Shown here: piece by piece, positions 30,201 to 31,797 of the stretch
How the letters are laid out: every line of letters begins with the position of its first letter
Position numbering within the stretch: the stretch's first letter is position 1
From: Amphiscolops sp. MND2022
Lineage: Eukaryota
Length of the DNA stretch: 64,000 nt
Assembly: GCA_964187785.1 (NCBI GenBank)
Contig: OZ076409.1
Location: 6,882,001 to 6,946,000 of the forward strand
Direction of reading: 5' to 3'
Translations under genes and position numbers: made by a program
The notes under the pieces: model-generated
The model's input: the letters and a program-made list of their open reading frames with translations, nothing else
Told to the model about the DNA's origin: nothing
The model's database searches: none

Positions 30201-31797
30201 TGTTCGCGCCTGTGTCCCTCGGTTGTTTGCGAGAATGCTTTGCTTGTAGCTTGCGAAGTAGTCTCGCCCTTGGTTCTTGAATGGCGGACCACCTGACCAC
30301 TATCAGGAAGTAAGACTATGATTTTTGCTGAAGAGACACGAACAAAACTGAGTTGAAGCTTTGAAGCTCTATTAAACTAAAAGATTATCACGTTTTGCAT
30401 ATTCTTGCAGTTCAAGACAGTTCACAGCTCTCATCATGGTGGGTGAGGTTTTGACAATGAAACACAATGTTTAGAATTCATGTACCAGTCAATGGACATA
30501 AATGACACAGTATGATGCAATTGGAGTTATGTAACTGCACGCTTATTGGCAAACAAATATGTTGTATGCATTGGCAAAACACCTTGTTCAATTCGGTCTA
30601 TACAACAAATAGGCAACGTAAAACATATATTCAGCAAAAGCAATGAGAATGAATGGGGTTGGGAAAGGTCAATCAAACAAAGATAGCATTCAGCTCGTTG
30701 TCACAGTGAGCTTGTATCAACTCAAAAATTCGTTTGCAACTAAAAGTTATAAATCACAATATCAACCACAAATATACATGAAGAAAGAGTAAAGTTTGCT
30801 ATTTTAGAGATGAATGAGCTTGAGGCTGCATTAAGCCTGACAATGGAGTTAGAGTCGGGGAGGCTTCCTTTGACTCGGGTGAGGGAGGGGGGCATAACAG
30901 ATTTCTTAAGGAAACAGAACATCCCCATTATTATACGTGGCAATCCTGTCCTGCGTTATACCAACGGAGCAGCAAGGAGGGTTGCTGTTTGTTTCCGTAG
31001 TGAAAAGCAACTTCTGGCAACCTTCAAGGGCATACGGATGAAGGACGCTGCTTTCGATGGACTTCCAGAGGCTCCCTGGCGATATTAGGCCCTATAACCA
31101 GACCCGCTAGGAGAGCAGTATGTGGAGGTTGTCCAAGATATTGGCGGGCACTCCATCGAGCACGTCTCACTCCTTGCATGGAGTGGTTGGCACATAGACT
31201 CCAACCCGGGAGGGAGCATTGTCAGCCAGCTGGAAAGGGGGAGGAAGTTGTGGTTCTTCACCACTCGCACACGCGAGGTGAAGACCCTCTGCAGAAAACG
31301 CATTGTGCCTCCGTTGGAAAGGCATCGTTCCCTGCCTGGTACGCTCCGGGATGACTTGCTGCAATTCCGGGCAAATATAGCATACTGCATCCAGGAGCCC
31401 GCTGACGTGGTCCTGTTTTCCTCCTTGACTGCACACTGTGTATTGACGGGACCAGGGCCAGCGGCTTTGATGACCACCACACTGAAGGTCGAGGGGGCCG
31501 AGGAAGAGCGCGTTCAGCACATGGAAGCGCAATATCAGCCTCAAGGAGTGAGGCGTGCGATAAGACAGCCGGGTGCGCGGGGAAGAAGTAGGGGGAAAAG
31601 ACGGTCCAGGTTTTCATGAGGTGAGGAGCGCTTTCAAGCTTTAAAAATATACAAAGTACAAAAATACATTTCTTCAAAAGTATTTCACTTCATGTTGTTT
31701 CAAATTGCACAGCTCTTGGTGTGCAAACGAGTTCGATAAATCTTTCCACTTTTTTGGGGAATCATTTTGAAATTTTTTCAGATTAATATATGCGACA
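30201..31797 (-). repeat. BEL 5' LTR (1597 bp)
   Basis: Direct repeat of 23131-24736; followed on the minus strand by the PBS. Confidence 0.95.
30810..31619 (+). pseudogene. JmjC-domain ORF inside the 5' LTR; single frame of 270 codons with two in-frame stops
   Basis: MNELEAAL...PIIIRG...EAPWRY*AL*PDPLGEQYVEVV...WHID...GRKLWFF...QEPADVV...AHCVLT...RGKRRSRFS*; TAG 31086, TAA 31095; 15-bp in-frame deletion relative to the 3' LTR. Confidence 0.78.

Follow-up and report, generated by a model that had tools for sequence, protein, structure and literature searches.

The window analysed here, a stretch of 64,000 nucleotides on contig OZ076409.1 of Amphiscolops sp. MND2022, contains an LTR retrotransposon whose two LTRs both carry an antisense JmjC reading frame broken by the same two stop codons, whereas a solo LTR of the same family has sense codons at these positions and a stop nearby. 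Two questions follow from this arrangement. First, do the stops mark separate lineages of the element, or are they damage to a single insertion? Second, what is the role of a gene that a mobile copy can apparently lose?

The retrotransposon and the solo LTR

The features of the element and of the solo LTR are as follows.

23131–31797, minus strand: full-length BEL/Pao LTR retrotransposon (family A), a decayed copy, recognised by its TG...CA ends, TSD and Pfam matches
30201–31797, minus strand: 5′ LTR, 1597 bp, K2P distance 0.0133 to the 3′ LTR
30179–30200, minus strand: primer-binding-site (PBS) region directly after the 5′ LTR, starting TTTGGTCC
24874–30200, minus strand: gag-pol, with DUF1759, zf-CCHC, protease, RT, Peptidase_A17/RNase H, integrase and DUF5641
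24737–24752, minus strand: purine-rich tract before the 3′ LTR, likely the PPT
23131–24736, minus strand: 3′ LTR, 1606 bp, with AATAAA on the element strand near 23290
47779–49334, plus strand (element sense): old solo LTR of the same family, K2P distance 0.23 to the 3′ LTR, its flanks agreeing at 4 of 5 TSD positions

The element is flanked by the 5-bp TSD GAAAT (23126–23130 and 31798–31802) and is a genuine LTR retrotransposon. It is assigned to BEL/Pao because of its Pfam content, with matches to DUF1759 (E 2e-30), Peptidase_A17 (E 1e-52) and DUF5641 (E 1e-32) as well as to RT and integrase H2C2; the family A gag-pol shows the order PR-RT-RH-IN together with the Pao-specific domains. Relative to a natural sister copy, gag-pol of the window element has suffered three stops and two frame changes, and the gag-pol frames of family A sister copies extend over 1418–1613 aa. 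The first 9 nt of the PBS recur as a direct copy in the 30283–30291 region, some 90 nt in from the end of the LTR. Self-priming was considered and rejected, since the repeated 9 nt are a direct copy and the LTR contains no complement of at least 9 nt.

The two stops are private to one insertion

The reading frame in question runs antisense to gag-pol, and in the window LTRs its match to the JmjC domain of Pfam is weak (E 3–5e-4).

30810–31619, plus strand: antisense JmjC ORF of the 5′ LTR, with two stops and a 15-nt in-frame deletion of its own
23732–24558, plus strand: antisense JmjC ORF of the 3′ LTR, with the same two stops and a 2-nt insertion of its own near codon 16
47960–48741, minus strand: decayed JmjC ORF of the solo LTR, with three stops (the first at 48467–48469) and seven frameshifting gaps
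31077–31103, plus strand: 27-nt stretch with the two stops in the 5′ LTR (31086–31088 and 31095–31097)
from 24001, plus strand: the same 27-nt stretch in the 3′ LTR (stops 24010–24012 and 24019–24021)
from 48472, minus strand: the same 27-nt stretch in the solo LTR (stop 48469–48467)
30748–30753, plus strand: TATAAA, candidate antisense promoter, some 60 nt before the JmjC start codon

The three 27-nt strings are present in the window exactly as the original prediction gave them, and the complementary pattern of sense and stop codons is as it described. The prediction went on to read the stops as the signature of two lineages, whose common ancestor encoded an uninterrupted protein. The further copies used to judge this came from the best 40 of 181 and the best 40 of 158 DNA candidates scored, and all counts are therefore lower bounds that lean towards close copies; 47 of the 60 loci (L001–L047) were analysed, the remainder repeating the same places, and these represent 45 distinct LTR copies. 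Each of the two stops occurs in 2 of the 45 listed copies, namely the two LTRs of the window insertion, and a sense codon stands at each of the two positions in the other 43. The two stops are thus ordinary private loss-of-function damage to one BEL/Pao insertion and not a marker of a subfamily or lineage, and the solo LTR is simply an old copy. Complementary stops in the full element and the solo LTR are unremarkable, because independent random stops seldom strike the same codon.

The continuity of the ancestral frame, in contrast, is borne out. A frame of 274 codons free of stops and frameshifts is kept by 21 of the 44 near-full listed family A copies, so that open copies do exist elsewhere in the genome as had been anticipated, and the two halves align end to end, at 47% identity, with a JmjC gene located in the LTRs of a second BEL family. 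Because natural open copies show it, continuity can be read without a reconstruction of the ancestor. The opposite case, in which the stops would be ancestral and the two halves would evolve independently, did not hold, the stops being private and the open copies all continuous. In keeping with this, the upstream piece by itself has no Pfam match and the downstream piece no in-frame ATG before HxD, and the halves were rejected as independent genes. Stop readthrough or another genetic code was likewise rejected: table 1 gives an open frame in sister copies, and the other stops found are TAA, TAG and TGA at scattered positions.

As for transcription of the antisense frame, the TATAAA has equivalents at 23670 in the 3′ LTR and at 48795 (minus strand) in the solo LTR. 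In 38 of 45 family A copies, which are related to each other and consist of A+T-rich DNA, the motif precedes the start codon by some 60 nt, but only 2 of the 11 frames of other families have a TATAAA close to their start. It is a weak candidate for the antisense promoter of the JmjC gene.

Dead genes shared by both LTRs

How, then, did the same two stops come to stand in both LTRs? The original explanation was that they were already present in the RNA template. Nine changes are common to both LTRs of the window element and absent from the other listed copies, distributed over LTR positions 193–1211 (about 1 kb), and the 5′ and 3′ LTRs differ by 21 further changes. Private changes amount to 1.0% in the internal region, where ~0.66% is expected per LTR since insertion. 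A comparable element on C9 has nine shared changes and 1.2% internal private changes, and an element on C1 with no shared changes has 0.55%. The nine LTR-shared private changes and the excess of internal ones fit descent of the window copy from an aged parent in which the gene was already dead. Conversion of one whole LTR by the other predicts the same numbers, and none of the 45 listed copies is a parent or sibling carrying both stops; the template explanation is likely, with gene conversion as its competitor.

The window element is not the only one of its kind. A stop shared by both LTRs was found in 3 of 11 pairs (on C1, C7 and C9), and since these three elements inserted with a dead gene, an element can likely do without the JmjC gene in cis. 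Beyond what they show on this point, the two stops are of little importance in themselves. The elements concerned are C9:44164120/44170926, C7:33557292/33564359 and the window element; two of them have two shared stops each, and these stops fall within codons 87–102. A check proposed along with the original prediction asked whether subfamilies with an open frame are younger. This is not supported, as the LTRs of the shared-stop pairs differ by 1.1–1.4%, which lies within the 0.4–4.7% of the other eight pairs, and they are neither younger nor older.

The JmjC gene in other retrotransposon families

The original prediction overlooked that the gene is common to many BEL/Pao and Gypsy families. 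Beyond the second BEL family mentioned above, 26 more distant sites were found, of which 12 are in BEL/Pao, 10 in Ty3/Gypsy and 4 in other surroundings or without context, and at all 22 LTR-element sites the JmjC gene lies 3′ of pol in antisense orientation. The carriers comprise two env-class Gypsy families and several BEL/Pao families, where the gene is placed either within the LTR or next to it. Long LTRs (1.6–2.0 kb in A and C) enclose it in BEL A, B and C, and in BEL D and E it adjoins LTRs of 250–290 bp, starting inside the LTR in E; this suggests that the LTR boundary has moved over the JmjC gene in BEL families. The representative search returned 68 proteins at E 0.001, among them full-length stand-alone relatives at ~21–44% identity, and a pattern scan of metagenomes gave 74 matches, none of which was confirmed.

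In Gypsy, the JmjC gene is positioned between pol and an env-like ORF. This ORF, of 753–754 aa, follows JmjC in both Gypsy families (L136:5096-7354 and L212:4177-6438, minus strand) and displays an N-terminal hydrophobic stretch, an RDRR/RKKR site followed by a hydrophobic peptide, and a C-terminal TM-like segment; it has no significant Pfam match. The LTRs of L136 and L212 are 504 and 443 bp long and 100% and 99.8% identical. In Gypsy2, pol (L198:3039-8420, minus strand) ends in a weak match to a Macro domain (E 5e-4). The same JmjC family also occurs in elements without gag-pol (L191:923-6720 and L218:503-6437). In L191 a SET-domain ORF (E 2.5e-6) lies beside JmjC, and there are phage-integrase SAM-like matches (E 3e-4 and 0.055). 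Judged from such domain matches, two sites resemble tyrosine-recombinase-type elements, one of them with the SET gene beside JmjC. Another multicopy JmjC family, very young and only distantly related to that of the LTRs (L232–L255 and other places), shows open stretches of 206–213 aa with near-identical scores at dozens of places; it was rejected as the origin of the LTR JmjC gene, the profile match having a probability of only 83% with 16% identity over 94 columns.

Exchange of the JmjC gene as a cassette

In Gypsy2, L198 and L201 agree at 98.5% of positions along 7.7 kb on one side of the gene and at 95% on the other, yet their JmjC cores are only 68% identical over 597 bp, and dS between Gypsy pol genes is 0.07–0.19 where that of JmjC ranges from 0.40 to saturated. 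Because the core differs so much between elements that are nearly identical elsewhere, JmjC must have been swapped as a cassette within Gypsy families. Among the BEL families, pol of BEL-C is 56–60% identical to that of A and B and JmjC ~25%. In a tree, whose deep forks are weak, the BEL and Gypsy JmjC sequences do not form two groups. From their shared homology and position we infer that exchange between the superfamilies may have occurred too.

Purifying selection between lineages

Selection was assessed as dN/dS (NG86) on natural copies, with the pooled 5′/3′ LTR pairs, which record post-insertion change only, as the control (dN/dS 0.73; Sd 40, Nd 88, 11 pairs). Relative to this control, dN/dS between lineages is strongly reduced in BEL-C (0.06 and 0.10; Fisher p 5e-9 and 2e-7) and also reduced in Gypsy1 (0.22, p 0.002), in BEL-E2/F (0.26, p 0.014) and between an older family A copy (C11) and A1 (0.27, p 0.002). 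Four comparisons are non-significant on raw counts, namely A1xA2 (0.41, p 0.14), the solo LTR against A1 (0.45, p 0.21), BEL-B (0.40, p 0.15) and the YR pair (0.43, p 0.23), and higher values were obtained for A2xA2 (0.84) and for two other BEL-B pairs (0.75 and 1.26). In very young pairs dN/dS of JmjC is 0.87–1.85, and pol is likewise near 1 (BEL-D 0.95). Within family A, variants found in at least three elements fall on codon positions 1/2/3 in the numbers 9/16/25, against 85/84/80 for single-element variants (p 0.022). The JmjC gene is thus under purifying selection between lineages.

A possibility that these data bear on directly is that the frame is a neutral passenger, either a captured host fragment or a frame held open by LTR constraints; this is hardly credible, for although the young pairs are near 1 (0.73 pooled), pol in young pairs is the same, dN/dS drops to 0.06–0.27 between lineages, and frames remain open at 25–47% identity in the same orientation at 22 of 22 sites.

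Fold and cofactor site of the encoded protein

Thirty-one natural sequences, 16 from genome loci and 15 database proteins (12 of them distant relatives), were aligned, with a mean column identity of ~26%. At this low identity the positions of the Fe/2OG ligands are nevertheless kept almost throughout: H133 in 31 rows, D135 in 30 (with E in the other), H214 in 30, K151 in 29 and S/T130 in 29. In the profile alignment they correspond to the T-x-F-H-x-D motif, the lysine and the distal histidine of KDM7/PHF8, which we take to be the metal and 2OG ligands of those enzymes. A non-catalytic scaffold that binds methylated tails, for which Epe1 is a reported precedent (PMC7192584, PMC6624913), is very improbable in the face of five cofactor positions each kept in 29–31 of 31 rows.

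A single sequence found no match in the PDB at E 1, and a profile search returned ceKDM7A (E 2e-6), PHF8 (9e-5) and JMJD6 (7e-4), with KDM6 and KDM2 also present. Modelled with AlphaFold2, an open copy gave a pLDDT of 85.5 and a pTM of 0.83; an earlier model from an 8-row alignment (pLDDT 30.6) was discarded. When the model was compared with known structures by VIA-align, the top 12 rows were all JmjC proteins (Z 11.5–14.1), headed by PHF2 (Z 14.1, rmsd 3.7, 227 residues aligned), ceKDM7A (13.9, 3.8, 232) and KDM2A (13.6, 3.8, 228). JMJD5 (13.7), FIH (13.1), JMJD6 and TYW5, all within Z 12.4–13.7, tie with these demethylases, and Foldseek places JMJD5/FIH/JMJD7 first, all at 10–16% identity. 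With PF02373 of Pfam, families A and B score 18.4 and 18.0 bits and stay under the cut-off of 24, which is passed by Gypsy1 (30.3), L188 (31.9), L189 (30.4), L198 (25.3) and L196 (24.0). A predicted JmjC double-stranded β-helix fold with an intact cofactor site is well supported. The nearest relative is KDM7/PHF8 by sequence profile and is tied between the demethylases, JMJD5 and FIH by predicted structure, so that the modelled fold does not fix the substrate.

Proteins of the KDM7 and KDM2 type combine the JmjC domain with a PHD or CXXC reader domain. In the retrotransposon ORFs of 260–340 aa, Pfam finds JmjC alone and no reader domain such as a PHD or a zinc finger, and a longer, fused JmjC form was absent at E 0.01 among 7991 candidates, which is weak evidence. 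Outside the JmjC domain, the last 30 residues contain 8–13 K/R in 9 of 11 frames of other families, and BEL-C has no such basic tail (5 K/R). From its composition, the tail is likely a nuclear signal.

Proposed function and alternatives

Animal transposons are silenced through histone methylation. With a probability of about 0.5, we consider that the stops are private damage to an accessory gene encoding a trans-acting nuclear enzyme, which would remove repressive histone methylation and so relieve silencing of the element. In such a scheme, an antisense transcript would start from the LTR side, and the JmjC protein would be imported into the nucleus via its basic tail, where the Fe(II)/2-oxoglutarate enzyme would strip repressive methyl marks, presumably from histones. 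Acting in trans, it would help all copies, so single copies could lose the gene and still move, and the window copy would have arisen from an aged parent in which the gene was already dead. Against such an enzyme, no predicted reader domain accounts for its targeting.

The strongest alternative, though unlikely, is an active 2OG oxygenase that would hydroxylate or demethylate a non-histone target, such as a host defence protein, the element's own Gag or integrase, or a modified RNA or tRNA base, in which case the exchange of cassettes would track a fast-evolving target. It draws on the ties of JMJD5, FIH, JMJD6 and TYW5 with the demethylases and on the first places of JMJD5, FIH and JMJD7 in Foldseek, and a small stand-alone protein without a reader domain would suit such a role. 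Histones, moreover, are conserved, and a cassette diversity of 25–68% identity would better match a variable target; the AlkB protein of an orchid Gypsy element is an RNA demethylase (PMC9289625). Against this, the sequence profile ranks KDM7/PHF8 first, the longest structural alignments (227–232 residues) are with PHF2/KDM7/KDM2A, and the related copy L191 stands beside a SET-domain ORF.

The histone demethylase reading is challenged by another observation, an excess of stops among LTR-shared changes, unexpected for a gene that brings benefit only. Stops make up 5 of 19 LTR-shared codon changes against 3 of 122 unshared ones (p 0.001), and 3 of 15 against 3 of 113 when the window element is omitted (p 0.02). 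Compared with the 3.85% of possible single changes that produce a stop, the binomial p is 0.0006 for 5 of 19 and 0.018 for 3 of 15 without the window element, and 3 elements with a shared stop were observed where 0.69 were expected. Such an excess would be left by a gene costly to the expressing copy or to the host, either a copy-number brake or a public good exploited by gene-dead cheaters, with dead alleles at a short-term advantage and masters keeping the gene. We regard this as improbable, because the excess rests on three events, one of which was chosen by the original prediction itself, each stop is confined to one insertion among the listed copies, so no gene-dead subfamily has expanded, and the shared-stop pairs are not younger.

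Taken one step further than an anti-silencing enzyme, an ancient family of stand-alone JmjC erasers may have become an interchangeable antisense cassette of BEL/Pao, of env-class Gypsy and of a tyrosine-recombinase-like element, serving as a public good against silencing in trans, exchanged among nearly identical elements in an arms race against the host, absorbed by the LTR in three BEL families and exploited by gene-dead cheaters, the window copy among them. We put this forward tentatively, as a possible course of events.

Comparison with known systems

Among host proteins, KDM7/PHF8/PHF2 and KDM2 (PDB 3n9l, 3k3n, 8f8y, 7uv9) resemble the retrotransposon JmjC in the fold over 227–232 residues (Z 13.6–14.1) and in the aligned HxD...H triad and S/T and K positions. 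In contrast to them, the retrotransposon protein is a stand-alone one of 270–340 aa, encoded by a single exon without PHD or reader, and shares only 10–12% identity with them. JMJD5, JMJD6, JMJD7, FIH and TYW5 are, like it, small stand-alone JmjC oxygenases with tied structural scores, but identity is 10–16%, and the profile match is weaker or absent except for JMJD6.

Among enzymes borne by other elements, one case is that of orchid Ty3/Gypsy elements, in which an m6A demethylase of AlkB type, with its cofactor ligands kept, forms an extra ORF proposed to act in counter-defence (PMC9289625). It is likewise a 2OG/Fe(II) dioxygenase in an LTR retrotransposon; unlike the JmjC cargo, it belongs to the AlkB family, is close to host ALKBH5, is limited to one recent plant lineage and acts on RNA as a shown substrate. 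Retrotransposons with DNMTs carry a chromatin enzyme of their own (PMC5890265), and further cases are VANC and the TET/JBP and SET genes of DNA transposons; no retrotransposon was found to have TET/JBP (PMC12730594). These DNMT, TET/JBP, SET and VANC genes are also selected chromatin enzymes of elements, but of other classes. In plant Retand, Grande and RIRE2 Gypsy elements, additional antisense ORFs lie between pol and the 3′ LTR, as JmjC does, and the Grande protein is nuclear (PMC11963269); they differ in encoding TRP28 and other non-enzymatic domains, in being restricted to plants and in their location outside the LTR. Retroelements of bdelloid rotifers share ORF3 modules across unrelated lineages (PMC5408684), again one enzymatic accessory ORF in unrelated retroelements, but there a DEDDy exonuclease or a GDSL esterase.

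The word JmjC occurs 0 times in PMC9289625, PMC5890265 and PMC12730594, and a word search of a review on giant transposons (PMC6431247) gave no mention of Jumonji. No retrotransposon-encoded JmjC was found in the literature searched, which did not extend to Repbase Reports, most subscription journals and supplements, so that prior annotation is possible. A selected, swappable and, by its sequence, cofactor-complete JmjC cargo of animal LTR retrotransposons would join the known class of transposon-borne epigenetic enzymes; for animal retrotransposons there is hardly any record of element-encoded erasers of silencing marks (none in the literature searched). The many natural JmjC variants across BEL/Pao and Gypsy provide material to test whether retrotransposons actively undo silencing. 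With the gene inside the LTR, an enzyme gene stays behind at each solo LTR, and the exchange of cassettes between elements that are otherwise 98.5% identical suggests a conflict still in progress.

Other repeats in the window

Several further repeats accompany the element. A 27-bp tandem satellite with a strong strand skew occupies 15541–17500, and two tandem duplications are located at 37538–40000 (period 1040 bp, 3 copies, 99%) and 51081–57100 (period 3079 bp, 2 copies, 99%). A dispersed repeat of 150–170 bp is found at 22978–23122, 32062–32232, 32563–32711, 53815–53985 and 56894–57064; one copy adjoins the 3′ end of the element, and an inverted pair lies at 32064–32711. The repeat may represent MITE ends.
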